A stretch of 64,000 nucleotides of DNA from Patescibacteria group bacterium (GTDB taxonomy: Bacteria; Patescibacteriota; UBA1384; 2-12-FULL-50-11): positions 415,746-479,745 of the forward strand of contig BOKZ01000001.1 in assembly GCA_016861245.1 (NCBI GenBank), given 5' to 3'. This document shows positions 7,795-57,688 of this stretch, piece after piece (the stretch's first letter is position 1; each line of letters starts with the position of its first letter). Both the position numbers and the translations under genes were made by a program. Below the pieces are notes generated by a model. The model had not been told where the DNA came from. It saw only the letters and a list, made by a program, of their open reading frames with translations, and made no database searches.

Positions 7795-7829
7795 GAGCAG
7801 GCGTAAAAGCTTGTTATGCTCAAACTCGG

Positions 7830-8600
7830 ATGACAACCGACATACAAAAAGCTGACCAGGAAATTCTTCGCATCGGGGCGCCGGCTAAATCCGAGCGGAA
7901 AATAAATACGTCTTCAAAGCCGTTGATCGAATTCAAAAAAGTAACGATGCAGTACCCCGGTCGGCTGGCGGTAAGAGAAGTTGATCTGGAAATCCGCGAG
8001 GGCGAGTTTGTTTGTTTGGTTGGTCAAAGCGGTGTCGGTAAAACAACACTAATTAAGCTTCTGACTATTCAGGAAACCCCGACTACCGGGGAGGTCTATG
8101 TTGCCGGCCGGAACTTGGCGGATTTGCGCAGTAAAGAAGTGCCGCTCTACCGAAGAAAAATCGGAGTAGTTTTTCAGGACTTTAAGTTACTGCCCCAGAA
8201 AACTGTGTGGGAGAATGTGGCGTTCGCCATGGAGGTTTGTGGTTTTTCGAACGCAGAGATCGCGAAGCGAACAGAAAAAGTGCTTGATTTAGTTAATTTG
8301 GGTCGGCGGGCAAAGAATTATCCGCACGAACTCTCTGGCGGCGAACGACAGCGCGTCGCGATCGCTCGGGCCCTGGTTCACTCCCCCAAAATTTTAATCG
8401 CCGACGAGCCAACCGGGAACCTAGATCCAGTTAATACTTGGGAAATTATCGAGTTGTTGTACCGAATTCATCAGAAAGGAACAACAATTATTCTTGCTAC
8501 GCACAACCGCCAAGTTGTCGACCGTATCCAGAAGCGAGTAGTACTGATGAAGTCTGGGAAAATCGTCAGCGATCAGCACGGAGGTAAATATGTCATATAA
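7830..8600 (+). CDS. ftsE: Cell-division ABC ATPase FtsE. The N-terminal extension is uncertain.
   Basis: Walker A (GQSGVGKTT), ABC signature (LSGGERQRVAIARAL), Walker B (ILIADEPTGNLD). It is immediately upstream of, and overlapping, ftsX. Confidence 0.8.
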   Translation: MTTDIQKADQEILRIGAPAKSERKINTSSKPLIEFKKVTMQYPGRLAVREVDLEIREGEFVCLVGQSGVGKTTLIKLLTIQETPTTGEVYVAGRNLADLRSKEVPLYRRKIGVVFQDFKLLPQKTVWENVAFAMEVCGFSNAEIAKRTEKVLDLVNLGRRAKNYPHELSGGERQRVAIARALVHSPKILIADEPTGNLDPVNTWEIIELLYRIHQKGTTIILATHNRQVVDRIQKRVVLMKSGKIVSDQHGGKYVI

Positions 8601-9516
8601 ACTCGAAACCGTGTTGCGGATTGTAAAGCTCGGCCTAAATAATTTTTGGAGAAACCGCTGGTTAACGCTCGGGGCGACACTTTTAATGACGTTAACGCTA
8701 ACGATGATTAGCGTCTTTTTGCTCTTCTCGTTTATCGTTCGTGATACCGCGGAGGCGATTCGTTCGAAGATCGACGTCACAATTTACTTTACCGATGACG
8801 CCGTAGCAGACGAGAAAATTATGGCGCTTGCCGATCGAATTAAATCGCAGCCAAACATTCAGGAAGTTATCTTTGTGAATAAGAAACAAGCGCTAGAAAT
8901 ATGGCAACGACTGCCAATTAACGAGGACGTTAAAAAGCCAGTGAGCGACTCATACAATCCGCTGCCCCGAAGTCTCCAAGTTGATACAACCGACCCAGAC
9001 GAAATACAGGGAGTAGTGAGTAGTATCGAAATCGCCGATACCGAGAAACTCATCTGTAACGAGTGCGTGTCGTACGTTAAAAACAAAGATGCAGTTAACA
9101 AGCTCGTTAGTATTACTCGGTTAGTTCAGCGAGTCGGACTATTTTTAAGTATTTTCTTTGGAATAATTGCCATATTCAACGTGCTTAATATTATTCGCAT
9201 CACCATCTCGGCCCGCTCAGATGAGATCGAAATTATGCGATACGTCGGTGCGTCAAATGCCTTTGTCCGCGGTCCGTTTGTAGTTGAAGGAGTGCTTTAC
9301 GGAGTGCTCGGTACGATAATAACTACTTTGTTTATTGTGTTAGTTTCACAAATTGCCAGCGGATATATTAGTATCACCGCTGACGTTTTGAACTTAAGTT
9401 TCGGCGCGTACGTACTTCATTACATCTGGCAAATTATCGGTTTTCAGCTGCTTATCGGTGTAATTCTAGGCGTAGTTGTTAGTGTTATCTCAATGCGGCG
9501 GTATCTACGAGCTTAA
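8590..9516 (+). CDS. ftsX: Cell-division permease FtsX.
   Basis: 308 aa. It has an N-terminal TM, a large extracellular loop, and three C-terminal TMs (FtsX/MacB permease topology), and it is translationally coupled to ftsE. Confidence 0.75.
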   Translation: MSYKLETVLRIVKLGLNNFWRNRWLTLGATLLMTLTLTMISVFLLFSFIVRDTAEAIRSKIDVTIYFTDDAVADEKIMALADRIKSQPNIQEVIFVNKKQALEIWQRLPINEDVKKPVSDSYNPLPRSLQVDTTDPDEIQGVVSSIEIADTEKLICNECVSYVKNKDAVNKLVSITRLVQRVGLFLSIFFGIIAIFNVLNIIRITISARSDEIEIMRYVGASNAFVRGPFVVEGVLYGVLGTIITTLFIVLVSQIASGYISITADVLNLSFGAYVLHYIWQIIGFQLLIGVILGVVVSVISMRRYLRA

Positions 9517-23468: not shown

Positions 23469-23850
23469 AGGGCCTGTCACGGCTTCGACGGGAACATTTA
23501 CAACTAAAGCACGCAAGCGGAGAGGACACGCCTTATCGTCCACAATTAACGTGCAAACGTTTTTGCAAAAGCTAAAGCTTCGATCGCGCAAGCTTTCGCG
23601 CCTAGCTTTGCTCCAGCAGTAGCGTAACGCTCACTGCCGTTTCAATAATCGATGCTACTACATTATTGAGGCGCTATATTTGTAGCTAGACGACGTCGCT
23701 GTGTCCGACGTTGTTCGAATCTCTACACTGCTCTATCGAAGTATTTCGTTTACTTCAAGCCTCGATAGCTAAGAAATTAAGTAAACTACGCTTGTAGACA
23801 CTTTAGTTGTTCGTTTTCGGACGCGGGTTCAACTCCCGCCAGGTCCACCA
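23469..23850 (+). ncRNA. ssrA: Transfer-messenger RNA (ssrA/tmRNA).
   Basis: The 5' end GGGCCTGTCACGGCTTCGACGGG matches the conserved tmRNA start (cf. GGGGCUG...UUCGACGGG). The 3' end is a tRNA-like T-arm and acceptor, GGACGCGGGTTCAACTCCCGCCAGGTCCACCA. The 5' and 3' ends pair as an acceptor stem. An internal Ala-rich tag ORF GCA AAC GTT...GTA GCG TAA (23553-23627) encodes ANVFAKAKASIAQAFAPSFAPAVA. Confidence 0.8.
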
Positions 23851-44689: not shown

Positions 44690-44737
44690 TTCCGTTTTCC
44701 GTGCTACTTGTTGCGTGTGCTACTATTGAGAAACCGA

Positions 44738-46540
44738 ATGTGCGGAATAATCGGCTCGATTGGTCATAAGAAAGTTGTTAACGACGTCTTGATCCACGGA
44801 TTAAAACGTTTGGAATATCGCGGATATGATTCCGCCGGCTTAGCAGTATTGACAACAGATGGTCTAAAAGTTGTTAAAAGAAAAGGTAAAGTTACTGAGC
44901 TCGAAGGCGACCAAACGACACAGAAAATTGACGGCAATATTGGTATTGCCCACACACGCTGGGCTACCCACGGCGAACCAAACGAAATTAACTCCCACCC
45001 TCATACAGATTGTGCCGGGAAGATTGCTGTAGTTCATAACGGGATTATTGAGAATTTTTATGCTCTAAAGATGATGCTAGTGAACGAAGGCCATAAGTTT
45101 AAATCGGAAACTGATACAGAAGTATTAGCCCATCTAGTTGAAAAATTTTATAAGGACGACTTAGAAGAAGCAGTTACGAGGTCACTTAAGCTGGTTGAGG
45201 GCGCGTTTGGAATTGCAGTGATTCGCGAAGGCGAAGATAGGATTGTAGTTGCTCGTCGAGGTTCGCCAATAATCTTAGGGGTCGGTCACAAAAAAATGTA
45301 CGTTGCCTCAGACGCACCAGCAGTTTTAGCACACACAAAAAAAGTTATTTATTTAAATGACAACGAAATCGCGTCGCTTTATGAAGATAGCTACACAATC
45401 AAGGACCTAAAGGGCAAAAAAGTAGTTAATGATATCCATGAGATAAAGTGGTCGCTTGAAGAGATTGAGAAGGGCGGATTTGAACATTTTATGCTCAAAG
45501 AAATGCACGAACAGCCAGACGCTATTGCTAACGCACTTCGCGGTCGAATATCTGGAGAAAAAGTAAAGTTAACTGTCAGATTTAAATCCAAGAACATTAA
45601 AAGAATTGTTATTGTCGCCTGCGGAACTAGTTGGCACGCTGGCTTAATCGGTCGATATATACTCGAGAAAATGACTGGAATACCGGTGTCTGTGGAATAC
45701 GCATCGGAATTTCGATACCGCGATCCAATTGTTGATAGCCGTACGCTTGTGATCGCTATCTCCCAATCCGGCGAGACGGCTGATACATTGGCTGCCGTGC
45801 TAGAAGCAAAAAGAAAGGGCGCAAAAACACTTGGGATTATCAACACGGTTGGTTCTACTATCAGTCGCGAAGTCGATTCGGGGGTATTCCTACATGCGGG
45901 ACCAGAGATTGGGGTGGCAAGTACAAAAGCGTTTAGTTGCCAAGTGACCACACTGGTTCTGTTAGCGATCCACATCTGCCAAGATTTAGATAAGAGCGTT
46001 TCTCCCGATATAGCACAGTCTCTCGTTAAGCTACCCGGGTTGATTCGAGAGGTGATCGCTGATCGCAAGAAAATTCAATCGATATCCAAGAAGTATCAAA
46101 AATATACGGACTTTCTGTACTTAGGCAGGGGGATAAACTTCCCAGTAGCGCTTGAAGGCGCGCTCAAACTCAAGGAAATATCGTACATTCACGCGGAAGG
46201 TTATCCAGCAGGTGAGATGAAGCACGGCCCGATTGCAATGATCGATCCAAATTTACCATCGGTTTTTATTACCCCAGACGACGATTCCTACGAAAAAACT
46301 CTTTCGAATATGCAGGAGATCAAAGCGAGGCAAGGTAAAATCATCGCAATTACAAGTATTGAAGATGAAAAACTTACCAAGCTAGCTGACGATGTAATTT
46401 TAGTACCAAACGTCCCAGCCGAAATCTCGCCAATTATCAACAACATTCCGCTACAATTTTTGGCTTATTACATCGCGACCGCCAAAGGAATTAATGTGGA
46501 TCAGCCGCGTAATTTAGCAAAATCCGTAACGGTGGAGTAG
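44738..46540 (+). CDS. glmS: Glutamine--fructose-6-phosphate aminotransferase (GlmS). The true start is MCGIIG.
   Basis: An N-terminal nucleophile Cys directly after the Met, then two SIS domains. 600 aa. Confidence 0.9.
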   Translation: MCGIIGSIGHKKVVNDVLIHGLKRLEYRGYDSAGLAVLTTDGLKVVKRKGKVTELEGDQTTQKIDGNIGIAHTRWATHGEPNEINSHPHTDCAGKIAVVHNGIIENFYALKMMLVNEGHKFKSETDTEVLAHLVEKFYKDDLEEAVTRSLKLVEGAFGIAVIREGEDRIVVARRGSPIILGVGHKKMYVASDAPAVLAHTKKVIYLNDNEIASLYEDSYTIKDLKGKKVVNDIHEIKWSLEEIEKGGFEHFMLKEMHEQPDAIANALRGRISGEKVKLTVRFKSKNIKRIVIVACGTSWHAGLIGRYILEKMTGIPVSVEYASEFRYRDPIVDSRTLVIAISQSGETADTLAAVLEAKRKGAKTLGIINTVGSTISREVDSGVFLHAGPEIGVASTKAFSCQVTTLVLLAIHICQDLDKSVSPDIAQSLVKLPGLIREVIADRKKIQSISKKYQKYTDFLYLGRGINFPVALEGALKLKEISYIHAEGYPAGEMKHGPIAMIDPNLPSVFITPDDDSYEKTLSNMQEIKARQGKIIAITSIEDEKLTKLADDVILVPNVPAEISPIINNIPLQFLAYYIATAKGINVDQPRNLAKSVTVE

Positions 46541-46583
46541 GTTTTTCCTTTAGGGCGACGTAGTGAGAGCTGTTAGAACTTTT

Positions 46584-48815
46584 TTAGATTCTGCTTCTCT
46601 TTAGTAGCAACGAGTTTAAAACAACAGAAATTGAACTTGCGGCCATGGCAGCCGATGCAAAAATAGGGCTAAGAAGTATCCCCCAAATTGGGAACAATAC
46701 TCCAGCAGCGACAGGAACGAGTAATGTGTTATAGCCAAATGCCCAGACTAAATTCATTTTAATCGTTCCCATAGTTTTTCGGCTGAGCCGGATCGCCGAT
46801 GCGACACTACGTAAATCTTTGTTTATTAAAGTAATGTCTGCGGCTTCAATGGCAACATCGGTACCGCTTCCCATCGCTATTCCGTTATCCGCGGCAGCTA
46901 ATGCTGGGGCGTCATTTATTCCATCGCCAACCATCGCCACATGGAAACCATCTCTTTGTAATTTTCGGACTTCGCTTTCTTTGTTCTGTGGCAAAACATC
47001 AGACAAGACATTTCCAGGATTAATCCCAACTTCTTTAGCAATTGCTTCGGCGACTCGGCGATTATCTCCAGTAATCATAAAAACCCTTAGACCTAATTGC
47101 ATGAGCTGGTTAACTGCTTCTTTGGACGTTGGTCGGAGTGTGTCGGCAACAGCAACGATCCCGGCAGCTTGGCCATTTATTGCTACTAGCATCGCAGTTT
47201 TACCTTCACTTTCTTTTTGCTGAAGGATCTTTTCTTGTTCGGGCGAAACAATAATCTTCTGATCTAAAAGCATCGCCCTATTACCAACTACAACCGTATT
47301 ATCTTCAACGACCGCGCTAACACCTTTGCCGGAAACAGAATCAAACTTTATCGGTTTTGACAGGCTAATATTTTTAGATTTAGCCCCTTCGACGATCGCA
47401 GTTGCTAATGGATGCTCCGACAAACTTTCAACAGAGGCTGCTGCTACTAAAACTGCTTGTTCACTTTTTTTCCATGCAATAACGTCTGTGAGTACCGGCT
47501 GCCCGTTCGTTAAAGTACCGGTTTTATCAAAAATAATGGCATTAACTTTATGAGCAGTTTCAAGTGATTCAGCATTTTTTACTAAAATTCCTTTTTCCGC
47601 ACCGCGCCCAGTTCCAACCATAATCGCAGTTGGCGTGGCTAATCCCATAGCACAAGGACACGCAATAATTAAGACCGTCACCATATTTAATAAGGCATAA
47701 GTTAAGTTTGGATTTGGACCAAATGCGTACCACACAACGAATGTTGCGATCGCAACCATAATAACTATTGGAACGAAATACGACGAAACTATGTCGGCCA
47801 TTCGCTGAATCGGTGCTTTAGAGCCTTGAGCATCTTCAACTAATTTGATTATTTGAGCGAGCATCGTTTCGGATCCAACTTTTTCTGCTTGTAATGTAAA
47901 ACTTCCTGATTTGTTCAAAGTAGCTCCGATGACTTGGTCGCCAACTTTTTTAGTTGATGGGATTGATTCACCGGTTACCATAGATTCGTCGACGGCTGAA
48001 GTGCCATCAATAATTTTTCCATCAACCGGGATCTTTTCACCAGGTCGAACGACAATATGGTCGCCTTTAACCACTTGATCGATCGGTAAATCTATTGTTT
48101 CGCCATTTCGAATTACTCGGGCAGTTTTCGCTTGCAAACTTATTAGGTTCTTAATAGCTTGACTAGTACGTTTCTTGGCGACGGCTTCAAGATATCGACC
48201 GAGTAATATTAAGGTAATTACAACAACCGAAACATCAAAATACGGCATTATTTCGGCCTCAATACTCATAAATAAATCAGGCATAAAAGTAATGATTGCC
48301 GAATATAGGTATGCCACCAATGTACCGATGGAGATCAAAGTATCCATATTCGCATTTCGATGTCTTAAGGCTTTGAGAGTGCTTTTATAGAATTGCCAAG
48401 CTGCCCAAAATTGAATTGGCGTTGCGATAATTAATTGAACGTAAAAGTTCTTTAATAGCTCTGGTGCAGTTTCAATTAACCCTGGGAAACTTCCCCATAA
48501 AATTAATAATCCAGCGATTGTGCCAGCGATTATTTTTGGACGCAATGATTTAATTTCTTGCTCGCGCATCATTTCTTGATGATTATGATGAGCTTCCCCT
48601 TCTTTAACAGCTTTATAGCCAGTTCGATCGATCGCTGCGTCTAAATCTTTTCGCTGACATAAAGTTTGATCGTAGGTAATCGTCGCTTTGCCAGTTGCTA
48701 AATTAACATTTGCTTCTTTCATCCCCTTAACTTTTGAAAGAGAACGTTCAATTGTGCGAACACAACTGGCGCAGTGCATCCCCTCAATAACAATAGTTTC
48801 TTTTTTGTGGTTCAT
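46584..48815 (-). CDS. copA: Copper-translocating P1B-type ATPase.
   Basis: N-terminal HMA domain (GMHCASC), a CPC motif in TM6, DKTGTLT phosphorylation site, GDGINDAP. Confidence 0.9.
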
Positions 48816-48918
48816 TTAGTGATGATGATCTTCCGGTTCGTCTTGACTAGATTCACCTAAAAAGAACCAGTAAACAAAAATAATTAATCCAACGCCAATA
48901 ACAATGACAAATAATTTA

Positions 48919-49137
48919 TCAATTGGCATTTGGCGTTGCTTTATAACCGCTTATTTCGTCGATCGCTTCAATAATTTCGTTGGTAGACATTTTCAATTCA
49001 TCAAACTCAATCTCAACCTCCTTTTTTATTAAGTCCGTTCTAACGTTTTTAATAGCGGAGTGATCTTCTTCGAGCCCCTCTAATAACATCAGGCAACTTG
49101 AACAATGAATTTCTGGTACTGAAAAAATTTGTTTCAT
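48919..49137 (-). CDS. copZ: Small heavy-metal-associated (HMA) domain protein / CopZ-like chaperone with a variant metal site.
   Basis: 72 aa. A HCSSC motif in the position of MxCxxC. ferredoxin-like HMA length. Confidence 0.5.
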   Translation of the reverse strand: MKQIFSVPEIHCSSCLMLLEGLEEDHSAIKNVRTDLIKKEVEIEFDELKMSTNEIIEAIDEISGYKATPNAN

Positions 49138-49147
49138 GACTACTCCT

Positions 49148-50293
49148 TTAATCGAATAAAATATTGCCTGTATACATACCCATCGAGCAAGTAAATTTTA
49201 GGAAGCCAGGCTTCTGTGGGGGGATGTTGATTGTTTTTGTGCCTGTTTCTTCTAATACTTCTTGAATTTTCAAGCTAGGAATTACGAACGCACGACTGCA
49301 ACTGTATGTATTGTTTGTTACTAGTATTAATTGCGTTGGAGAATTGGCCTTAGCTTTAAGTATTCTTGGTTCGTAGCCGTAGTCAGTGGCGTTGATAGTT
49401 ACAATTTGACTTATCCCATCTTCGGAACTAACTACTGGAGGTTGGTTAGCCGCTGTATCGTTGGTGTTCTGTGAAGTAATACTTTTAAGTTCCAACCTCT
49501 GCTTATAAGCCGCGTAAGAGATAGGCGAGCCAATTAAATTTAATCCACTTTCTAGCGAGTATAGTGCAAAAATCAAAATAATTACCGCAACAACTTTAAC
49601 GAAGTTGGCGTTTAAACTCTCACTGATACGTGTTGTGAAGTAGGCTAGGATAAAAAATAACGGCGAAGCCCCGACTGTAAACGCAAACATAATTACAGCA
49701 CCATAGAGTGGGCTACCGGTTCCAATTGCCAGAGCCATCATTGCCTGTGTGATGCCACAAGGAATTAACACCGTTAAGGCACCCAAGAAAGCTGGTGTTG
49801 CAAAGTCTTCTTTTCTATTTTTACTCAGCCGACGAATAAACGTTCGAACAAATCTTGGCGGCTGGATTTGGAAGTAACGAAAAATCGGGTGAACGTTTAA
49901 CATCCTCAATGCTGTTCCCAACATGAAAATAGTAATCGCTATCATGAGAACACCACGAGCAATTGGACTTAACTGGATCATAGTTCCTAAGTATCCGAGC
50001 CCAAACCCCAGAATTGTATAAGCGATTATCTTAGATATTAAAAATAAAATAATCGAAAGAGTTATGTTGTTACGGGATGCTGCGCTCCTGGAGTTCGGAT
50101 GAATATTATTGTATCGGTTGAGTAGGTCTTTCTTGGTTGCGGGAGAAATTTGTCCTGGATTTTTTAGATCTGAACTTATTTCATCTTCAGCCTGGTTACC
50201 GATCACATTTGCTAGTAGCCCGCCCTGGACTGCTAAACAACTCAAGCCGCCAGTCGTGAGTCCAGTTAGAAACACAAGCCAAATGTTTGGCAT
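49148..50293 (-). CDS. Membrane permease (DsbD_2/TauE-like 6-7 TM domain) fused to a C-terminal cupredoxin-like copper-binding domain.
   Basis: Gly-rich TM N-terminus (LTGLTTGGLSCLAVQGGLL). C-terminal block ITINATDYGYEPRILKAKANSPTQLILVTNNTYSCSRAFVIPSLKI...FKFTCSMGMYTGNILF, typical of the cupredoxin_1-type domain. It lies within the cop operon. Confidence 0.45.
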   Translation of the reverse strand: MPNIWLVFLTGLTTGGLSCLAVQGGLLANVIGNQAEDEISSDLKNPGQISPATKKDLLNRYNNIHPNSRSAASRNNITLSIILFLISKIIAYTILGFGLGYLGTMIQLSPIARGVLMIAITIFMLGTALRMLNVHPIFRYFQIQPPRFVRTFIRRLSKNRKEDFATPAFLGALTVLIPCGITQAMMALAIGTGSPLYGAVIMFAFTVGASPLFFILAYFTTRISESLNANFVKVVAVIILIFALYSLESGLNLIGSPISYAAYKQRLELKSITSQNTNDTAANQPPVVSSEDGISQIVTINATDYGYEPRILKAKANSPTQLILVTNNTYSCSRAFVIPSLKIQEVLEETGTKTINIPPQKPGFLKFTCSMGMYTGNILFD

Positions 50294-50622
50294 TATTTCG
50301 TAACTCCTTCGGACAGCTCCTCAACTAAGTTCTGAGTGAACTCATTGTTTTGAAGGGAGTAATACACGGTTTGAGCCTGTTTGTTTGATGTAACAATATC
50401 CGCTTCTTTTAGCTTCTTAAGTTGTCGAGATGCGGCTGAGATTGATAAATCCACTAACGTCGCAATATCTGAGACCGAAAGCTCAGGGTGGTGACGGAAA
50501 AGATAGCAGATTTTCATTGCCGTAGGGTCGCCGACTGTGCCGTGACGACGCGCACATGCTCTCACTGATTCGCTGTTTGCAATTTCTTCCTTAATCTTCT
50601 CAAAATCTTTATTTGCGTCCAT
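50293..50622 (-). CDS. ArsR/SmtB-family metalloregulator. The likely start is MDANKDF at 50622; the ORF track used TTG at 50634.
   Basis: Winged HTH (ICYLFRHHPELSVSDIATLVDLSISAASRQLKKLKEADIV). It is the first gene of the cop operon. Confidence 0.65.
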   Translation of the reverse strand: MDANKDFEKIKEEIANSESVRACARRHGTVGDPTAMKICYLFRHHPELSVSDIATLVDLSISAASRQLKKLKEADIVTSNKQAQTVYYSLQNNEFTQNLVEELSEGVTK

Positions 50623-50652
50623 ATGCAAATACAATCAAATTCGTATTTGCAT
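50623..50652. promoter_or_regulatory. Perfect 10-bp inverted repeat ATGCAAATAC-N10-GTATTTGCAT abutting the arsR-family start. Candidate operator of the cop operon.
   Basis: 10/10 complementary arms with a 10-nt spacer, located in the promoter region between tRNA-His and the regulator gene. Confidence 0.5.
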
Positions 50653-52296: not shown

Positions 52297-52370
52297 GCGC
52301 CTGTAGCTCAGCGGATTAGAGTACTTGTCTTCGGAACAAGGGGTCGCAGGTTCGAATCCTGCCAGGCGCG
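52297..52370 (+). tRNA. tRNA-Arg (anticodon TCG).
   Basis: GCGCCTG-TA-GCTCAGCGGATTAGAGT-A-CTTGT-CTTCGGA-ACAAG-GGGTC-GCAGGTTCGAATCCTGC-CAGGCGC-G. Confidence 0.75.
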
Positions 52371-52426
52371 CAGTAGAAAAAAACAATTAACTAAATTATG
52401 ATCGACTCAGATCCAGGAGGATTTAC

Positions 52427-53053
52427 ATGCCCCTTATTATAGGAGTCGAACGCGATCGGATAATGCGACGTCTTGTGGAAAGTGGAGTGATTCTATCGGG
52501 TCACTTCGAGCTTCATTCCGGTCGTCATAGCGACCGATACCTCGATAAGCGATTATTTATGCAAGAGCTAGTAGAGGAATACGACCAATTTTGTGCGTTA
52601 ATTGCAGATCGAATCGTTACTGAGGGTTACAGCGCGATTGTAGCCCCAGAAGCGGCTGGGATGATGGTGGCGGAACGGGTTCTCGGACATATTCGATCAC
52701 GCAATTACAAAGTTGGTTACGCACCGGCGTATAAAACTGACAACGGTTTCGTGATCGACTCTAACTACAAGCGAGAGATCGCCGGACGGTGCGTCGCCGT
52801 TATCGAGGACGTAATTACGACTGGCGACACAGCGGTAAAAGCTGCTCAACTTGCCCGTTCGATGGGTGCTAGCGTCAACTCTGTTTACTGTTTGTTCGAG
52901 CGTGGAGCTCACCGTCGCATCGGTGGAATACCAATCCATCCCGTGGTTAGCATAGAGTTGCAAGATTGGACTCCGCCGTGTCGGCTATGCGAGCAGGGAA
53001 TCCCGCTTTCACCGAAGCCAATGGGCGGCTCGCAACTTGCCCTTAGCGACTAA
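52427..53053 (+). CDS. Phosphoribosyltransferase, orotate-PRTase-like.
   Basis: PRPP-binding motif VAVIEDVITTGDTAV. The N-terminal ILSGHFELHSGRHSDRYLD resembles PyrE. Confidence 0.6.
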   Translation: MPLIIGVERDRIMRRLVESGVILSGHFELHSGRHSDRYLDKRLFMQELVEEYDQFCALIADRIVTEGYSAIVAPEAAGMMVAERVLGHIRSRNYKVGYAPAYKTDNGFVIDSNYKREIAGRCVAVIEDVITTGDTAVKAAQLARSMGASVNSVYCLFERGAHRRIGGIPIHPVVSIELQDWTPPCRLCEQGIPLSPKPMGGSQLALSD

Positions 53054-53054
53054 C

Positions 53055-53082
53055 CCGCCGTTGGCGGGTACTTTTTTACTTG
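53055..53082 (+). terminator. Rho-independent terminator (CCCGCC-GTTG-GCGGG plus a T-run).
   Basis: Stem-loop then TACTTTTTTA. Confidence 0.55.
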
Positions 53083-53143
53083 CTTCTAGTATCTGGCTGT
53101 GTTTCTATTGGGTTCGAACCGATTCGTCGGTTGTGGAGGGAAA

Positions 53144-54172
53144 ATGTCTGTTATCGAGTTTGATCGCGAGCGAGCGATAGTTATCTTTCGCGATCTTGCC
53201 GCTCGGTGGCAGAATCGCGAAGCGCCCTTTAATACCGAAAAGTTTATCTCACCAGAACGGAAGTACCACCCCAAAGGAGTGACAGTGGGCTCAATCGAGC
53301 ACGCTCAGTTCCTGTTCTTTAGCGGCTGGCTGAATAGAAACGGCAAAACTGCTACCGAGCTGTTTCGTGACGCTCGAAACATCGCAGAGCAGTCACCGTG
53401 GATTATCGATCCGCGCGACTCGCGAAGCTTAGAGCGTGAGCGGTTTGACCTCCTAGAGAGGGTAATACCGTTCGCTAGCCACGAGAAGTACACTGCACGA
53501 GTTGACTGGTGGTACCGAGATTGTATGGGGCTGTTACGAGACACCTATGAGAGTGATCCGAGGAACATCTTTGTAACGGCAGAACTTTCTGGCGACTGGC
53601 GGGCTGATCGAGATTTGCTGTTGAAGCGGTTAATGTCCTTCTTTGGTACCGGACCGAAGATTGCTCAGCTAATTTTGCTTTTCTTCCAGGAAGTTGAGTG
53701 GTTGGACAATCACCAACATCGTTGGGAAGCAGTTCGTCGAGTACCGTCGATTGCGGCCGACATGTGGGTGATGAGACTCATGCGTCAACTAAATATTGTA
53801 GTAAGCTGGGAATCAGACATCTCAACAAAGATTAGTTCTGAAATCTCAGATTTTATCTGCGAGATTTGTTTTGACGAGAGTATCCCACACACTCACCTCA
53901 TTCAAGCACTCTGGCATACCGGTGCCGTGATTTGCGGTCGGATGCGACCAAAAGACCAAACGGTCGCTCGACCGTTCTGTCATAACATTTGTCCAGTTGG
54001 AAAGAGCTGTGTAGGGATCGTTCCGGCCAATTACGTAAGTAACGGCAGGCTCTCACTCTACGCTACGAAAAATGGCAAGCAACGTACCACACAGCGGCTG
54101 GCAAGTCTTCGCTACGACGAGATGAGACCGCATCCGTTAACGTTCGACGACCTCTGGCATGACCCAGAATAA
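53144..54172 (+). CDS. Divergent HhH-GPD superfamily (endonuclease III-like) DNA glycosylase-like protein with a C-terminal 4-Cys cluster.
   Basis: The HhH is LMSFFGTGPKIAQLILLFF. It is followed by VPSIAADMWVMRL, which is like EndoIII PTIAVDTHIFRV (catalytic Asp). Then come C-x14-C-x3-C-x5-C at the C-terminus. GC-rich. Confidence 0.4.
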   Translation: MSVIEFDRERAIVIFRDLAARWQNREAPFNTEKFISPERKYHPKGVTVGSIEHAQFLFFSGWLNRNGKTATELFRDARNIAEQSPWIIDPRDSRSLERERFDLLERVIPFASHEKYTARVDWWYRDCMGLLRDTYESDPRNIFVTAELSGDWRADRDLLLKRLMSFFGTGPKIAQLILLFFQEVEWLDNHQHRWEAVRRVPSIAADMWVMRLMRQLNIVVSWESDISTKISSEISDFICEICFDESIPHTHLIQALWHTGAVICGRMRPKDQTVARPFCHNICPVGKSCVGIVPANYVSNGRLSLYATKNGKQRTTQRLASLRYDEMRPHPLTFDDLWHDPE

Positions 54173-54198
54173 GCCGGCTACAAGCCGGCTATTTTTTT
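54173..54198 (+). terminator. Rho-independent terminator AGCCGGCT-ACAA-GCCGGCT-ATTTTTTT.
   Basis: Perfect 7-8 bp stem plus a T7 run. Confidence 0.7.
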
Positions 54199-54272
54199 AT
54201 TTGACACGCAATTTTTTTGACTGTACGACGAGTATAGGGGATCGTCAGTTCTTTAACCTACAGGAGGGTAAT

Positions 54273-55508
54273 GTGTCAGATTCTACAGCTATCGTTCGCG
54301 GAGAACCGGGGTTTGTCGACCCCTTCAACGTCTGTGTTTTCCGCCAAGTCCGCGATGGCGAGGAATCACACTACCAGGGGATCACGGAGCTTGCAGAGAG
54401 TATCGCCGGGAACCACTTGCTGACTCCCCTCACAATTTGTGTTTGGGACGAAGCTACAACCGAGCAGTACGCGCAACTGATCAAGCAGATCTTCAACGGC
54501 GACGGGGGCTTCGTTTTTGAAGCGAAACAGCCGTACGACGACGGAAAGAATCGAGTCTTAGTTGCCGGCCACCGTCGGCGACAAGCGCTCCATCGATTGC
54601 GGTTTGAGGGTAGCGATGTCTATCGACAAAACTTTCCCGAGCAATCAAGCGAGGAGTGTTTTCTTGATCAGTTCAGAGGAGATCGGAATCATCCGTTGCC
54701 CGGCTTTGTGCCGGCGATGATCTACACTGACATTCCAGCCGAGCGAGGCGTAAGCCTCCAGCTCGAGGAGAACATAAACCGTCGCAATATCTCGTCGCCC
54801 ACTCAAGCGAAAGCGATCAAAGGTCTTTACGATCTAAAAGCGCTGCAGCAAGGGGATGCGAGCCTCAGCATGGCTGAGTTTGCACGGCAGAGCCAGATAA
54901 GTCTCAACGTCGTTCGCGACGCGCTTCGCTTTTGCGAACTGCCGAAATCCATCCGCTACGCGGTAGAAAACGGCGCGTTCAAATGGAGTTGCGCGCTTGA
55001 GCTGACGGTGATTCACCGGATGTTGCGCGAGCGGCCCAAGCCAGACGGAACCCTGCGTGATGCGAAGGAAATCGAGTACACACTGCTCTCGCTCTCAGCG
55101 AGTGAAGCTGCCTCGAAGAATCTTCAGGCGTTTCGCAAGTACCTGCAGACTTGGGTTACTGAAGTGCTTGGACAGCTGGTAATGTTCGAAGAACTAGCGC
55201 TAACTCCTCAACAGATCGCCACCCAACTCTTGGGCGACGAGATGGTTCGAGGGAGCGCTGAGCACACGATCTTTTTGCAGCGCGTCACGTACGCGCTCAG
55301 AAACGGCTGGATCAAGGATGGTAAACTGGTGCCGCTTCATCGTCACGAAGCGAGAAAAGCGATCGCAGCGATACTCGCCGAACAGCGAGCGTTACTGCCG
55401 ATGTTGCAGCTCGTGCTCGACCAAGCAACCGCCGAGGAATTGGAAAACCTCGGCACTGACAGTCAGAAAGCGCTGGACGCGATTTCGGCTCTGGCCGTCA
55501 ATTCCTAA
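54273..55508 (+). CDS. ParB/Spo0J/Noc-like protein with a GHRR (not GERR) arginine-patch variant. It is an orphan: no parA is in the window. Likely GTG start.
   Basis: ParB N-terminal domain ELAESIAGNHLLTPLTICVW...NRVLVAGHRRRQALHRL. ParB-type HTH SQISLNVVRDALRFCELPKSIRYAVENGAFKWSCALEL. The ORF-track N-terminus (54159-54272) overlaps the previous gene and its terminator, so it is discarded. Confidence 0.55.
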   Translation: MSDSTAIVRGEPGFVDPFNVCVFRQVRDGEESHYQGITELAESIAGNHLLTPLTICVWDEATTEQYAQLIKQIFNGDGGFVFEAKQPYDDGKNRVLVAGHRRRQALHRLRFEGSDVYRQNFPEQSSEECFLDQFRGDRNHPLPGFVPAMIYTDIPAERGVSLQLEENINRRNISSPTQAKAIKGLYDLKALQQGDASLSMAEFARQSQISLNVVRDALRFCELPKSIRYAVENGAFKWSCALELTVIHRMLRERPKPDGTLRDAKEIEYTLLSLSASEAASKNLQAFRKYLQTWVTEVLGQLVMFEELALTPQQIATQLLGDEMVRGSAEHTIFLQRVTYALRNGWIKDGKLVPLHRHEARKAIAAILAEQRALLPMLQLVLDQATAEELENLGTDSQKALDAISALAVNS

Positions 55509-55548
55509 CCCGTTTCTCCGTTCGGAGAGCGGGTATTTTTTTACTTCT
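55509..55548 (+). terminator. Rho-independent terminator (CCCGTTTCTCCGTTCGGAGAGCGGG plus a T-run).
   Basis: Imperfect GC-rich stem followed by TATTTTTTT. Confidence 0.5.
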
Positions 55549-55564
55549 CTGGTATTATGCAACT

Positions 55565-55849
55565 ATGGATCAGCAGGAAAAAGACAAGATCTTAGATCGT
55601 CTCGTTGCTTCAATCGAAAAAGCTTATCATCGCCCAGGTCGCTTGATGTGGCGAGGGTTTTTAATCGGACTAGCATCGGGTATCGGTGGGACGCTCGGAA
55701 TCGCACTCGTTATAATATTGCTAACATTACTGGTCGGGAAGTTAGGCGGAATACCGGTTATCGGTGAAGCTCTGAGGGATTTGCTCGATATTATTAATCG
55801 AGGGGCGGACACACAATCGTTTATCCAGTACGTACGACTACTCGTTTAA
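55565..55849 (+). CDS. Small membrane protein (hypothetical).
   Basis: 94 aa, two TM helices (FLIGLASGIGGTLGIALVIILLTLLVG). Confidence 0.35.
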   Translation: MDQQEKDKILDRLVASIEKAYHRPGRLMWRGFLIGLASGIGGTLGIALVIILLTLLVGKLGGIPVIGEALRDLLDIINRGADTQSFIQYVRLLV

Positions 55850-56466
55850 TGGCAGATTGGATTATTGATTTTATTTCTACTGGAGGATATCCGGCGATCG
55901 CGGCGTTGATGCTGCTTGAGACAATCTTTCCGCCGATTCCGTCGGAATTAGTGGTACCGTTTGCTGGATTTGCTGCCGCCCAAGGACGTCTCGACATCTG
56001 GCTAGTTGTAATCTCTGCCTTTGTTGGCTCCGTGTCAGGAGCGTTAGTGTTGTATTGGGTTGGAAAACTGATTAAAGACGAGAAACTAGAGCAATTCGTT
56101 CAAAAGCACGGACGTTGGCTGACGTTAGATGTTGACGACTTACGGAAGTCTCGTCGTTGGTTTGATCGCTATAGTCGAACAGCGGTCCTATTTGGACGAC
56201 TCATCCCAGCGGTTCGATCTCTTATTTCGATACCAGCTGGGATCACTAAAATGAGTATTGTGTCTTTCTTTATATTCTCAGCCATCGGTACCGCTGTCTG
56301 GTCCTCGGTTTTAGCTTGGGCGGGGTACTTACTCGGCCAAGATTACGAGCGAATTCGCCATATTATAGACCCAGTAACTTCGATTGTTGTTTTACTAGTT
56401 GTTGTGATCTACCTATATCGACTTATTTTTCCTAGGCGTAAATCTGGATCAGCTGTAACAGATTAG
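55849..56466 (+). CDS. DedA/SNARE-associated family membrane protein.
   Basis: AALMLLETIFPPIPSELVVPFAGFAAAQG is the DedA signature. Confidence 0.65.
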   Translation: MADWIIDFISTGGYPAIAALMLLETIFPPIPSELVVPFAGFAAAQGRLDIWLVVISAFVGSVSGALVLYWVGKLIKDEKLEQFVQKHGRWLTLDVDDLRKSRRWFDRYSRTAVLFGRLIPAVRSLISIPAGITKMSIVSFFIFSAIGTAVWSSVLAWAGYLLGQDYERIRHIIDPVTSIVVLLVVVIYLYRLIFPRRKSGSAVTD

Positions 56467-56491
56467 GTATAATTTTATTTGCTAGATATTT

Positions 56492-56563
56492 GGGGCATTA
56501 GTTCAGTGGCAGAACAACGGACTCTTAATCCGTGTGTCAGTGGTTCGAATCCACTATGCCCCA
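56492..56563 (+). tRNA. tRNA-Lys (anticodon CTT).
   Basis: GGGGCAT-TA-GTTCAGTGGCAGAAC-A-ACGGA-CTCTTAA-TCCGT-GTGTC-AGTGGTTCGAATCCACT-ATGCCCC-A. Confidence 0.75.
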
Positions 56564-56633
56564 CAGAGTAAATTCGAACCAGTTCGACTGCGACTCGCCG
56601 AACGGCGAGGAGAAGTACTGAGCGAAGCTCAGT

Positions 56634-56650: not shown

Positions 56651-56752
56651 ATTAAATACTGTTAATAACCGTTGATATACTACTAATGGCGGAGTATAAT
56701 TTGCTCCACTCCTGGTTCAACCAGGCGTAGATTACATACAGGAGGTTAACAT

Positions 56753-57688
56753 GTGGTGGAAAAGCTCCCCAGAATCGTAGTTGAGAAGCAAGGGTCGCAT
56801 TCCGAAAACCCGCCGAAGGGTATCGAAGTGCCGATCCGTGACGCATTAGCGCGTCACGGCTTCACGGAAGGTTGCTGGTGCATGAAAGTTCGCATGGTGC
56901 ATGCTCGAGGCGAAAGCCATAGCTACCGCGGTGCGCACTTCAAGGGCCTTCGGAATTACGCTCGTGCTCGTAACGTCATCGACGTTGTGTCACAGCCGGG
57001 CGCCGCACATACGGCTTTCCTAGCAGACCTGATTGTGCCGGACTGTTACGACGCAACTCACGTTCTCAACACGGTTCGACAGATCAACACCCTTGATCCG
57101 AACAAAGACGAGGACCTGGAGATGCTCAAGAAAGCATCGCAGTTCGACGTCGGCGCTTCTGCTAAGAGGCGCAGCAACGAACCCATCGCGTCAGTCCGTC
57201 GAAGCAACGAAGCGCGCCAACAAAGGATCGCTAAGTTCCTCGGTAAGCCAAAAAACATCGACGCAGTCGGAGTAGTGATCCAGCGAGAATCTCTCAACGG
57301 TTCTGTTCCGATCAGCGTCCTGGATAAGGCGATCCGGGAAACGCTGCCGTTTCAAATCTCAAGAGATGAGCTGGCGAGTACGCGAGCGATCTTCGTGTTG
57401 AATGAGGATCTTTTGCAGCCGGGTGATGGCGTGTACCACCTTTCCGAACGCGGCCAACTCTGGATCGAGAGCTTACGTCAGCGTGAGCGCGACAACGAAG
57501 CGTTAGCGCAGCAAATGCAGCAGCAGCTTCTTCGGCGGCAGCTTCAGAAATGCGAACGCAGCCTTCGACAGTTCGACGAACGGGTTGAGGCCGAGCGATT
57601 AGCGAGGCTCGAGACTATCCAACAACTCAAGTCACAGCTCGGGATCTTCGAGCAAGGAAGTGAAGAACATGTATTGGTGTTGAGCTAA
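56753..57688 (+). CDS. Hypothetical protein, GC-rich, with a C-terminal Gln/Arg-rich coiled-coil. GTG start with a GGAGG RBS.
   Basis: 311 aa. GGAGG 7 nt upstream of GTG. C-terminal ALAQQMQQQLLRRQLQKCERSLRQFDERVEAERLARLE. Confidence 0.4.
   Translation: MVEKLPRIVVEKQGSHSENPPKGIEVPIRDALARHGFTEGCWCMKVRMVHARGESHSYRGAHFKGLRNYARARNVIDVVSQPGAAHTAFLADLIVPDCYDATHVLNTVRQINTLDPNKDEDLEMLKKASQFDVGASAKRRSNEPIASVRRSNEARQQRIAKFLGKPKNIDAVGVVIQRESLNGSVPISVLDKAIRETLPFQISRDELASTRAIFVLNEDLLQPGDGVYHLSERGQLWIESLRQRERDNEALAQQMQQQLLRRQLQKCERSLRQFDERVEAERLARLETIQQLKSQLGIFEQGSEEHVLVLS

Follow-up and report, generated by a model that had tools for sequence, protein, structure and literature searches.

A ParB-Paired Family of HhH-GPD DNA-Glycosylase-like Proteins with a Predicted Iron–Sulfur Cluster Loop in Candidate-Phyla-Radiation Bacteria

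Organisation of the Locus

The window, a stretch of 64,000 nucleotides from contig BOKZ01000001.1 of a Patescibacteria group bacterium, carries a gene for a DNA-glycosylase-like protein and, directly downstream on the same strand, a gene for a ParB-family protein. The features of the locus are the following:

53144..54172, + strand: open reading frame of 342 aa for a DNA-glycosylase-like protein with an HhH-GPD fold and an Fe-S loop, family uncharacterised (the target)
53639..53677, + strand: HhH hairpin F166-L178 (FFGTGPKIAQLIL), from the profile alignment to EndoIII
53657-53659, + strand: codon of Lys172 inside the HhH, aligned to the EndoIII Lys
53678..53740, + strand: insertion of about 16 residues that adds a helix between HhH and Asp segment, seen as a 16-residue gap in the EndoIII alignment; position approximate
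53759..53761, + strand: codon of Asp206, predicted catalytic Asp in the motif (P/A)-(V/A)-D-x-(H/W)-x-x-R, from the alignment to the Asp of EndoIII VDTH
53912..53914, + strand: codon of Trp257 in the motif Q-A-L-W-x-x-G, candidate base-stacking residue, 95% conserved
53933..54010, + strand: four-Cys block C264-x14-C279-x3-C283(P284)-x5-C289, predicted [4Fe-4S] cluster loop, from the EndoIII/MutY alignment
54172..54200, + strand: terminator-like hairpin AGCCGGCT-ACA-AGCCGGCT (54172-54190) followed by a T run, overlapping the target stop codon
54273..55508, + strand: ParB-family protein of 411 aa (the partner); ParB/CTPase-type domain at the N-terminus, ParB-type HTH, and helices in the C-terminal region
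55517..55540, + strand: terminator-like hairpin 3′ of the ParB-like gene

The target gene starts with the ATG at 53144, directly preceded by GGAGGG, and the same Met opens the homologues. The partner starts with the GTG at 54273, which has a GGAGGG ribosome-binding site and agrees with the N-termini of its homologues. With this start the two genes are 100 bp apart, and not 75 bp as originally predicted; the separate terminator placed between them by that prediction is present in the form of the hairpin at 54172-54190 and its T run.

Motifs and Predicted Structure of the Target Protein

The elements first recognised in the sequence, namely an HhH motif, a GPD-like segment and four C-terminal cysteines spaced C-x14-C-x3-C-x5-C, are all present in the ORF. 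Residues 166-180 make up the HhH segment FFGTGPKIAQLILLF, containing Lys172, and residues 200-212 the GPD-like segment VPSIAADMWVMRL, containing Asp206. The stretch FGTGPK...AADMW thus comprises the HhH hairpin followed by a loop and the invariant Asp that characterise the superfamily. The distance from the end of the HhH segment to the Asp is 27 residues (26 in the original count). Lys172 lies 34 residues before Asp206, compared with 18 residues in EndoIII, because of the 16-residue insertion; in the predicted structure, a helix formed by residues 191-198 falls within it. About 165 aa precede the HhH, fewer than the 190 or so reported before, and this N-terminal part is not free of motifs as had been believed, since 70-92% of 100 relatives share P37, H53, R65 and D138-P139.

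The predicted model of the target (pLDDT 70, a moderate value, and below 50 across the Cys block) features a two-lobe, all-helical fold with a central helix-hairpin-helix. The closest known enzymes are EndoIII/MutY/MIG (PDB 2ABK, 8A5F/G, 1RRQ and 1KEA), AGOG, the archaeal 8-oxoguanine DNA glycosylase/lyase of Pfam PF09171 (1XQO/1XQP and 7OLB), and QNG1, the DUF2419 queuosine-5′-monophosphate glycosylase (7UGK and 7U07). Structural similarity over the longest stretch was best with QNG1, on top, and AGOG, all Foldseek matches being weak (best E 0.08, TM 0.34-0.55).

Relatives and Conservation of the Family

An exhaustive profile search revealed about 409 clusters of full-length relatives of the target. 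A word-indexed homologue search with the 100-sequence profile added just one further protein, and patterns made for close relatives only gave one match among 185,579 GTDB species. The search of metagenome contigs with a degenerate DNA pattern returned 12 loci, 4 of which were true. No relatives were found in the phage, plasmid and IMG/VR collections, and a mobile-element or defence origin was rejected on these grounds.

The residues on which the original prediction depended are well conserved. Asp206 is kept in 100 of 100 diverse relatives, and Lys172, Gly168 and Trp257 are conserved in 92%, 95% and 95% of them. The corresponding values for the cysteines range from 84% to 99% (C264, 94%; C279, 84%, with another 14% being alignment gaps; C283 and C289, 99% each). 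Their spacing was described correctly for the target, but it is not unique to this protein: the last part reads C-x3-C-x5-C in 74 of 155 relatives and has the canonical form C-x2-C-x5-C in 49. The Asp, Trp and Cys residues are also retained in all copies from the genomic contexts discussed below, including tandem paralogues, save for a Ser at the C279 column in locus L030. The Lys is found in every such copy except that of the archaeal locus L008, where Glu occupies the column, possibly through misalignment.

Nothing in the Pfam, NCBIfam, PADLOC and PHROG models matched the target at threshold, and neither did the nth and mutY models; a weak match to the MutY C-terminal region (E 0.08) was noted. 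Scans of the 100 relatives against curated models yielded only scattered weak matches of the HhH-GPD type: one relative matched PF00730 at E 0.008, three matched PF09171 (AGOG) weakly with a best E of 6e-4, and a few weakly matched TIGR03252, mutY and DR2438. The target itself matched neither PF00730 nor PF09171, and the Q_salvage/DUF2419 model of Pfam had no match among the 100 members. Judged by these sequence comparisons, the family is an unannotated member of the HhH-GPD superfamily that lies outside every curated model, and for this reason the earlier description as a new glycosylase clade is fair.

Relation to Known HhH-GPD Enzymes

The iron-sulfur cluster loop of EndoIII and MutY is a DNA-binding element. 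The profile of the family matches sequences of EndoIII, NTHL1, AGOG and MutY with E values of 0.007-0.03, the Lys, the Asp and the four Cys being in register. Its segment pGiGhKiasL aligns to PGVGVKTASL of Deinococcus radiodurans EndoIII, and the Cys block aligns to the cluster-loop Cys of EndoIII/MutY with insertions of 8 residues and 1 residue. The expected likeness to HhH-GPD proteins is therefore found in the Lys and the Asp, and neither outcome named beforehand as refuting the call (a fold unlike HhH-GPD, or Cys residues that vary among homologues) was obtained. The conserved residues point to binding of an Fe-S cluster, to catalysis and to DNA as the putative substrate.

The label "EndoIII-like" holds for the aligned Lys, Asp and Cys residues, but it is too narrow, as the best structural matches are QNG1 and AGOG. 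The HhH-to-Asp spacing, regarded previously as atypical, likewise departs from EndoIII while being normal for the AGOG/QNG1 branch. The catalytic residues are K140/D172 in AGOG (PMC3397491) and K199/D231, with a spacing of 32, in QNG1 (PMC9881137); the Lys-to-Asp spacing is thus 32 in this branch and 34 in the target. Trp257 falls at or beside Trp222 of AGOG, as judged from the ranges of the profile-to-AGOG alignment and not residue by residue. The long spacing, shared with AGOG and QNG1, together with a Cys block aligned to the EndoIII/MutY loop, indicates that, at the level of sequence, an AGOG-like core and a predicted EndoIII-type cluster loop are united in one protein.

The ParB-Type Partner

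The partner contains the boxes Q-x-R, LVAGHRRRQA and LEENINRR. It is similar to TIGR00180 (parB_part) with E 9.6e-7, which is below the cut-off of that model, and its profile matches Spo0J (1VZ0) with E 2e-4, the match spanning boxes I to III as well as the HTH. It is the segment EFAR...VRDALRFCELPKSIRYAVENG that pairs with the HTH of Spo0J, and ParB of Myxococcus xanthus likewise aligns over both boxes and HTH. Weak or faint matches to HTH_ParB were obtained for the partners in L003 and L029. Conservation across 11 partners extends to Q.R, AG.RR..A and EN. In the window partner and in many others, GERR reads GHRR, with His in place of Glu; hence, NTP hydrolysis may differ or be absent in these proteins. 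The predicted model of the partner (pLDDT 49) is too poor for fold comparison. PADLOC and PHROG contained no match for it.

No ParA gene adjoins the ParB-like gene in any locus examined. A canonical parS site (up to 3 mismatches) was not found in the local DNA near the window locus, and no palindrome common to 12 loci was found. A palindrome within the target gene, TGTTTCG-N7-CGAAACA (53361-53381), was considered as a site and taken as chance, because none of the fetched loci has it, not even L007, which is 99% identical.

Pairing across Genomes

The original prediction suggested that the ParB-like gene might be unrelated and proposed its co-occurrence as a check. The hairpin between the genes is real, but the pairing contradicts this suggestion: of 14 independent contexts, 12 have a ParB-like gene next to the glycosylase-like one, with neither the order nor the orientation of the two being fixed. 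The carriers sampled are candidate-phyla-radiation (CPR) bacteria and one archaeon. The genes are adjacent in the context shared by the window, L001 and L007, and are paired in L004, L022, L027 and L028 and in L009-11/L023. The ParB-like gene lies upstream in L003, and the two genes are convergent in L029 and also paired in L013; in the archaeal context (L008), the start of one gene overlaps the stop of the other. One gene separates the two in L012, and the pairing in L015 is partial. Adjacency is also evident in a Berkelbacteria genome from the locus tags A3A71_03205 and A3A71_03210. The pairing is held across HhH proteins that are only about 19% identical. Two distant members, L030 and L031, have no ParB gene nearby. 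The glycosylase-like gene is duplicated in tandem in L015 and L022.

An all-against-all comparison of the neighbours revealed no third conserved gene, the other neighbours being unrelated between contexts. A phosphoribosyltransferase (PRTase)-like gene directly upstream of the target in the window and in L002 occurs in the closest relatives only. This gene, a DedA/VTT gene and the MOSC gene of L012 were considered as a third partner and set aside as lineage-specific.

Proposed Function and Alternatives

We propose that the target is a [4Fe-4S] HhH-GPD DNA N-glycosylase acting with the adjacent ParB-family protein in a two-gene module, and we put the probability of this reading at roughly 55%. 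Its core would be AGOG/QNG1-like, with Lys and Asp far apart, additional helices at the N-terminus and a conserved Trp in what is presumed to be the base pocket, and its C-terminus would carry an iron-sulfur cluster loop of the EndoIII/MutY type. The partner would bind DNA through its HTH, and its nucleotide-binding N-terminal domain would serve for loading or clamping on DNA or for activating the enzyme on duplex DNA, presumably in a nucleotide-dependent manner. The glycosylase would then flip the base and excise it, with Asp206 acting on C1′ and Lys172 forming a Schiff base, so that the enzyme is probably bifunctional, combining glycosylase and AP-lyase activities through Lys172. The conserved adjacency suggests that the pair probably works as one two-gene DNA base-excision module whose members would be coupled physically or functionally. 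A further step, less likely than not and offered tentatively, is that the glycosylase depends on the partner for targeting or activation: a nucleotide-gated ParB clamp would load on DNA and deliver or license excision and strand nicking. By analogy with the AGOG/QNG1-like pocket, one might guess at a purine-type lesion or a modified purine as the target base. Several findings count against the proposed reading. The Foldseek matches are weak, and QNG1, which tops them, has a free nucleotide and not DNA as its substrate. The target matches no curated HhH-GPD model at threshold, and its structure model is of moderate confidence and poor over the Cys block. In the window, the two genes are 100 bp apart and a terminator-like hairpin follows each of them. 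L030 and L031 have no ParB gene nearby, the His of GHRR may alter or abolish NTP hydrolysis in the partner, and no parS-like site was found in the local DNA.

The hairpins and the gap also agree with a stand-alone base-excision glycosylase, a divergent analogue of Nth/AGOG in reduced genomes, beside a ParB protein that does other work, for example in chromosome organisation. A partner is not required by most HhH-GPD glycosylases, the two distant members have no ParB neighbour, and the locus has housekeeping genes around it, with synteny kept between relatives at 87% and 45% identity. Nevertheless, we regard such independence as unlikely. The adjacency persists in 12 of the 14 contexts while the surroundings change, and it is found in both gene orders, in convergent orientation, at about 19% identity and in an archaeal context; such a pattern usually betrays a functional link.

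Somewhat less probable still is a conflict or epigenetic pair, engaged either in modification-dependent defence, in which foreign DNA with an unusual base would be excised or nicked, or in a DpdA/DpdB-like base-exchange (transglycosylase-like) machine for DNA modification. ParB-like helpers of DNA-modifying enzymes are known (PMC10164549, PMC13229309), but the partner here is a classical ParB with GxRR and an HTH, and not of the DGQQR DndB/DpdB type (PMC10164549). The family is rare and patchy, judging by the single match obtained among GTDB species with the close-relative patterns, and the tandem duplications in L015 and L022 suggest diversification; however, its relatives are missing from the phage, plasmid and IMG/VR collections, and neither protein matches PADLOC or PHROG. 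The base handled by QNG1, the best structural match, is a 7-deazaguanine, and a PRTase-like gene lies upstream in the window. This gene is confined to the closest relatives, the neighbours are housekeeping genes, and conserved genes for a methyltransferase, a nuclease, a toxin or base biosynthesis are lacking beside the pair.

A QNG1-like nucleotide or nucleoside N-glycosylase for base salvage, possibly feeding the upstream PRTase and not acting on DNA, is improbable. CPR bacteria depend on salvage, and the PRTase-like gene is found directly upstream in the window and in L002. Against this stand the DNA-binding ParB protein as the conserved partner, the lack of any Q_salvage/DUF2419 Pfam match in 100 members, and the conserved Fe-S loop, which binds DNA in EndoIII/MutY and does not occur in QNG1. 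The Lys-to-Asp spacing is QNG1-like, but the HhH hairpin is canonical, without the QNG1 insertion before the Lys (PMC9881137). Nor is the PRTase conserved with the pair. Least probable of all is a catalytically inactive Fe-S HhH DNA-binding accessory of ParB-based chromosome organisation, replacing ParA for example: catalysis has been lost in some HhH-GPD relatives and no ParA gene adjoins the ParB-like gene in any locus, but if the role were structural alone, one would not expect both the catalytic Asp to be kept in 100 of 100 relatives and the HhH Lys in 92%.

Comparison with Known Systems

Few repair enzymes have been studied as thoroughly as the HhH-GPD glycosylases, which are seen as acting alone on DNA. 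No paper linking ParB with an HhH-GPD glycosylase was found in the literature searched. The present family appears to be a whole HhH-GPD subfamily that has gone unnoticed, missed by all curated models, in which an AGOG/QNG1-type core is predicted to be joined to an EndoIII-type iron-sulfur loop. Repair and chromosome biology have barely been explored in CPR bacteria and their archaeal counterparts. If the proposed coupling is true, the pair would offer a testable way into DNA maintenance in these organisms, and a natural two-protein system for the way in which a clamp-like partner aids the flipping of bases from duplex DNA.

In comparison with EndoIII, MutY and MIG, the HhH Lys, the VDTH-like Asp and the four cluster-loop Cys all align, and the target keeps the Lys as bifunctional EndoIII does. 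It differs in the 16-residue insertion between the HhH and the Asp and in being about 130 residues longer. The loop of EndoIII is C-x6-C-x2-C-x5-C and that of the target C-x14-C-x3-C-x5-C, with the four conserved Cys aligned and the model poor in this region; in the family, the first spacer is at least 14 residues against 6 in the EndoIII type, and the second is often 3 against 2.

The likeness to AGOG lies in a Lys and an Asp about 32-34 residues apart, in an elongated second helix and linker (PMC3397491) and in a conserved Trp about 50 residues past the Asp. An Fe-S cluster loop is absent from AGOG, which is said to be confined to archaea (PMC3397491). The present family, in contrast, possesses four conserved C-terminal Cys, the canonical G-x-G-x-K hairpin sequence and about 90 extra residues, and does not reach the Pfam threshold for AGOG. 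It also has a ParB partner, whereas AGOG is without a known one.

QNG1 is similar in size to the target. Its substrate is a free nucleotide, and insertions, including a β-hairpin inside the HhH before the Lys, block its DNA cleft (PMC9881137). The hairpin of the target is an uninterrupted G-T-G-P-K with no predicted strand, so that this insertion is absent. Unlike QNG1, which has no Fe-S cluster, the target has a predicted cluster loop and is paired with a DNA-binding protein.

Precedents for the partner come from other enzymes. DpdB is an obligatory ParB-like helper of the DNA transglycosylase DpdA, which is inactive on dsDNA without it (PMC10164549), and phage thymine dioxygenases (5mYOX) require ParB activators on dsDNA (PMC13229309). 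As in the present pair, a ParB-superfamily gene stands beside an enzyme that must flip a base from duplex DNA. If the partner is indeed obligatory, the target would be the first ParB-dependent DNA glycosylase, and the pair, found in CPR bacteria and at least one archaeon, would join DpdA/DpdB and the phage thymine dioxygenases as a third class of systems in which ParB accompanies a base-flipping enzyme. Its function, be it site-directed excision, removal of a modified base or clamp-guided repair, would have no described counterpart. If the coupling is real, the recently recognised role of ParB-fold helpers would extend from enzymes that modify DNA bases to base excision. The systems also differ in several respects. 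The enzyme here is HhH-GPD glycosylase-like, while those of the precedents have the TGT fold or are 2OG dioxygenases. The partner keeps the classical ParB HTH, in contrast to the 5mYOX ParBs, which have no DNA-binding domain, and its GxRR and HTH set it apart from DpdB, which is of the DGQQR DndB/SspE type (PMC10164549). The carriers here are CPR bacteria and an archaeon and not phages or a restriction-modification island, and the dependence on ParB, described for DpdA and the 5mYOX enzymes, is presumed for this pair.

The glycosylase-like gene and its flanking signals

The open frame at 53099–54172 (+), seen both in the ORF list and in the raw sequence, holds the glycosylase-like gene, the product of which is 342 residues long. 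Translation likely starts at ATG 53144, located 6 bases after a GGAGGG sequence, and the N-terminus MSVIEFD is common to this protein and all its close homologues. The original prediction of an HhH-GPD-like ORF with unusual Cys spacing is borne out, with all the motifs it listed being present.

Features of the glycosylase-like gene, its product and the adjacent gene ends
53144–54172 (+): glycosylase-like gene
Residues 166–180: HhH segment FFGTGPKIAQLILLF
Residues 200–212: GPD-like segment VPSIAADMWVMRL
Residues 264, 279, 283 and 289: cysteines, spaced C-x14-C-x3-C-x5-C
54172–54190: terminator-like hairpin and T run, overlapping the stop codon of the glycosylase-like gene
53053–53069: similar hairpin, after the gene upstream
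54273–55508 (+): ParB-like gene, 411 aa
55517–55533: similar hairpin, after the ParB-like gene

GTG 54273 is the most probable start of the ParB-like gene, because this codon follows a GGAGGG ribosome-binding site and yields the N-terminus MSDSTAIV, the same as in the homologue from L001 (a locus with an 87%-identical relative). The gap between the two genes is therefore 100 bp rather than the 75 bp proposed at first.

Residues 298–342 (54036–54169) form a C-terminal tail ending in T-F-D-D-L-W, which is predicted to be disordered or of low confidence. The tail is kept in close homologues and is not conserved in P0007, the most distant sequence of that alignment; it could act as a peptide that docks a partner. 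A palindrome, TGTTTCG-N7-CGAAACA, with arms recalling parS half-sites, lies inside the gene at 53361–53381 and occurs once in the window. It is probably a chance occurrence, since none of the loci fetched has it, not even L007, which is 99% identical.

Family size and conservation

No match to the protein was found among Pfam, PADLOC and PHROG models, and the sole NCBIfam match was a weak one to the MutY C-terminal model. A word-indexed search of 5.8 billion proteins returned only seven relatives (36–87% identity), none with a name, and a GTDB genome scan, with patterns sensitive to close relatives only, matched one genome, MAG 'bacterium isolate DTUPAT3' (99% identity). When 1.84 billion cluster representatives were searched exhaustively with a profile, 409 proteins matched at E ≤ 1e-3; 134 of them reach ≤ 1e-10 and 61 reach ≤ 1e-30, and almost all are about 300–400 residues long with a full-length match. 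One member, OGD60890, comes from a Candidatus Berkelbacteria genome, where it is listed as 'hypothetical protein A3A71_03210'. Given these counts and the lack of model matches, the protein belongs to a real, rare and unannotated family.

Across 100 diverse aligned members, Asp206 is conserved in 100%, Lys172 in 92%, Gly168 and Trp257 in 95% each, and Pro284 in 90%. Of the four cysteines, Cys264 is kept in 94%, Cys283 and Cys289 in 99% each and Cys279 in 84%, the remainder of the latter being alignment gaps within a variable loop. Among 155 family sequences, 74 have x3/x5 as the last two Cys spacers and 49 have the canonical x2/x5. The consensus around the Asp is P-V-D-x-H-x-x-R, and A-V-D-T-H-I-F-R of EndoIII is nearer to it than to the window protein. 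Cys242 (85%), Pro37, His53, Arg65 and Asp138-Pro139 are also conserved; hence, the N-terminal half, described at the outset as having no recognisable motif, is not featureless.

Pairing with the ParB-like gene

Genomic contexts were gathered by exact look-up of family proteins, by the GTDB genome scan and with a degenerate DNA pattern on metagenome contigs, and all their six-frame ORFs were scored with profiles of both families. A ParB-like gene of the same family adjoins the glycosylase-like gene in 12 of 14 independent contexts with sufficient flank, which overturns the initial doubt about a link between the two.

Position of the ParB-like gene relative to the glycosylase-like gene in the window and other loci (L numbers)
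Window, L001, L007: downstream
L003: upstream
L004: downstream
L008: start overlaps the stop of the glycosylase-like gene; archaeal exosome-operon context
L009–L011, L023: downstream
L012: separated by a MOSC gene
L013, L029: convergent
L015: partial, at contig end; beside two glycosylase paralogues in tandem
L022: after two tandem glycosylase paralogues
L027: downstream
L028: upstream

In the Berkelbacteria genome, the pair has adjacent locus tags (03205 and 03210). The remaining neighbours vary: ribosomal protein S2 and EF-Ts, DnaG, enolase with exosome genes (Rrp41/Rrp42/Rrp4 in L008), BipA with PfkB, or a Na/H exchanger. When neighbouring ORFs were compared all against all, no third conserved gene emerged; only the glycosylase-like and ParB-like genes recur. 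The Asp, Trp and Cys residues are present in every glycosylase-like copy, apart from Ser at the C279 column in L030, and the Lys in all copies except that of L008, which has Glu at that column, perhaps through misalignment. The tandem paralogues (L015, 805–3119; L022, 838–2908) stand beside a single ParB-like gene, and both copies in each locus have retained the four Cys along with the Lys, Asp and Trp, a pattern suggesting that substrates diversified inside a single module.

The two exceptions, L030 and L031, hold distant family members with no ParB neighbour. In each (L030, 813–2810; L031, 2610–4910), the family member adjoins a coiled-coil SMC_N/AAA_23 ATPase, which may be an alternative partner or a coincidental neighbour; the two ATPases have only the ATPase motifs in common. 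That of L031 lies beside rnc, a classical smc position, and its adjacency may be plain synteny.

The window ParB-like protein gave below-threshold matches to parB_part, Noc and phage ParB PHROGs. A profile built from it and five homologues matched ParB of M. xanthus and Spo0J of T. thermophilus (1VZ0, E 2e-4), and the aligned parts comprise three blocks of the N-domain (ELAESI..LLTPL; LVAGHRRRA on LVAGERRYRA; LEENINR on LVENLQR) and the HTH (VRDALRFCELP on VANALRLLQLP). Eleven partners from different loci conserve Q-x-R, L-x-A-G-x-R-R-x-x-A, Q-x-x-E-N, EFAR and the HTH motif, with the GERR Glu replaced by His in about half, including the window protein. The C-terminal 150 residues were modelled as long helices, in a poor model (pLDDT 49). 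The L008 partner (6990–8885, 631 aa) matches Pfam ParB_N, and the alignment of the partners suggests that it carries a second GHRR-type ParB N-domain.

Other features of the window

The segment from tRNA-Arg to tRNA-Lys (52297–56564) carries the PRTase, glycosylase-like, ParB-like, DUF5665 and DedA/VTT genes, with a G+C content of 0.50–0.52, slightly above the rest of the window. The phosphoribosyltransferase-like gene (52427–53053 (+), 208 aa), directly upstream of the glycosylase-like gene, is nearest to orotate PRTase models, far below cut-offs, and gives a weak PADLOC ShosT match (E 4.9e-4). A gene of like size (210 aa) directly precedes the homologue in the close relative L002; the neighbour comparison found none beside more distant pairs. 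In L028 and L029, a VTT-domain gene is found no more than two genes away from the pair, and it did not cluster as a conserved component in that comparison.

The region 44708–50634, ending at tRNA-His, has a G+C content of 0.39–0.43 against about 0.46 and encodes GlmS-like, heavy-metal P-type ATPase, DsbD_2-cupredoxin fusion and ArsR-type regulator proteins. L001 has other genes between BipA and PfkB, and the region looks like a variable region or insertion. A 311-aa ORF (56753–57688 (+)) just after tRNA-Lys has a strong promoter-like site (56672–56700, 11/12 matches), no significant match in Pfam, NCBIfam, PADLOC or PHROGs, and no counterpart at the same position in L001. ARAGORN predicted a tmRNA at 23470–23850 (+) with the unusual tag peptide DATTLLRRYICS.

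Fold, proposed function and comparison with known systems

The AlphaFold2 model, built on an eight-sequence alignment, has a mean pLDDT of 70 and a pTM of 0.71, with pLDDT below 50 at residues 261–303 and in the C-terminal tail. The 100-sequence profile matched EndoIII, NTHL1, AGOG and MutY among PDB sequences (E 0.007–0.03). In the resulting alignments, G-x-G-x-K falls on PGVGVKTA, the invariant Asp on that of VDTH and the four Cys on those of the cluster loop, with a 16-residue gap between HhH and Asp and insertions of 8 and 1 residues in the loop. The Lys-to-Asp distance is 34 in the window protein and 18 in EndoIII (E. coli K120/D138), in agreement with this gap. It is 32 in AGOG (Lys140/Asp172), which has a second HhH helix of roughly double the length and, after it, an extended linker (PMC3397491), and 32 in QNG1 (K199/D231; PMC9881137), and these two are the structures aligning over the longest stretch. 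On spacing and structural alignment, the predicted core is AGOG/QNG1-like, combined with a C-terminal Cys block of the EndoIII/MutY type; AGOG and QNG1 both lack a cluster. The fold and predicted cluster loop of the initial interpretation stand, and the label 'EndoIII-like' proved too narrow. QNG1 also differs in a beta-hairpin inserted before the Lys, part of a block on the DNA cleft (PMC9881137), whereas the hairpin of the window protein is uninterrupted (G-T-G-P-K). Judged from alignment ranges rather than residue by residue, Trp257 would lie at or beside AGOG Trp222, the residue stacked on the flipped base.

The invariant Asp, conserved HhH Lys, canonical DNA-binding hairpin, predicted Fe-S cluster loop and DNA-binding partner point to a DNA N-glycosylase, and the Lys suggests AP-lyase activity by analogy with EndoIII, OGG and AGOG. 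On purely comparative evidence, the family is an uncharacterised HhH-GPD subfamily with a conserved ParB partner.

The genes around the pair are housekeeping genes, synteny is kept in relatives with 87% and 45% identity, no relatives were found in phage, plasmid or IMG/VR collections, and there was no PADLOC match. Together, these observations speak against a mobile defence element and favour a function that is chromosomal and vertically inherited in the lineages concerned. Less probably, the pair has a conflict or epigenetic role.

As the pairing is conserved, a joint function is proposed, in which the protein would act as a ParB-coupled Fe-S glycosylase/lyase; we infer the coupling, and with it any nucleotide dependence and the substrate. 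A literature search found no paper linking ParB with an HhH-GPD glycosylase, and a recent survey of the ParB-CTPase fold makes no mention of a glycosylase partner. Besides the conserved pairing, the proposal draws on two precedents established by experiment: DpdA requires the ParB-like ATPase DpdB to replace guanine with preQ0 in DNA (PMC10164549), and one subclass of the thymine dioxygenases of phages depends on a ParB-like activator, specifically when acting on dsDNA (PMC13229309).
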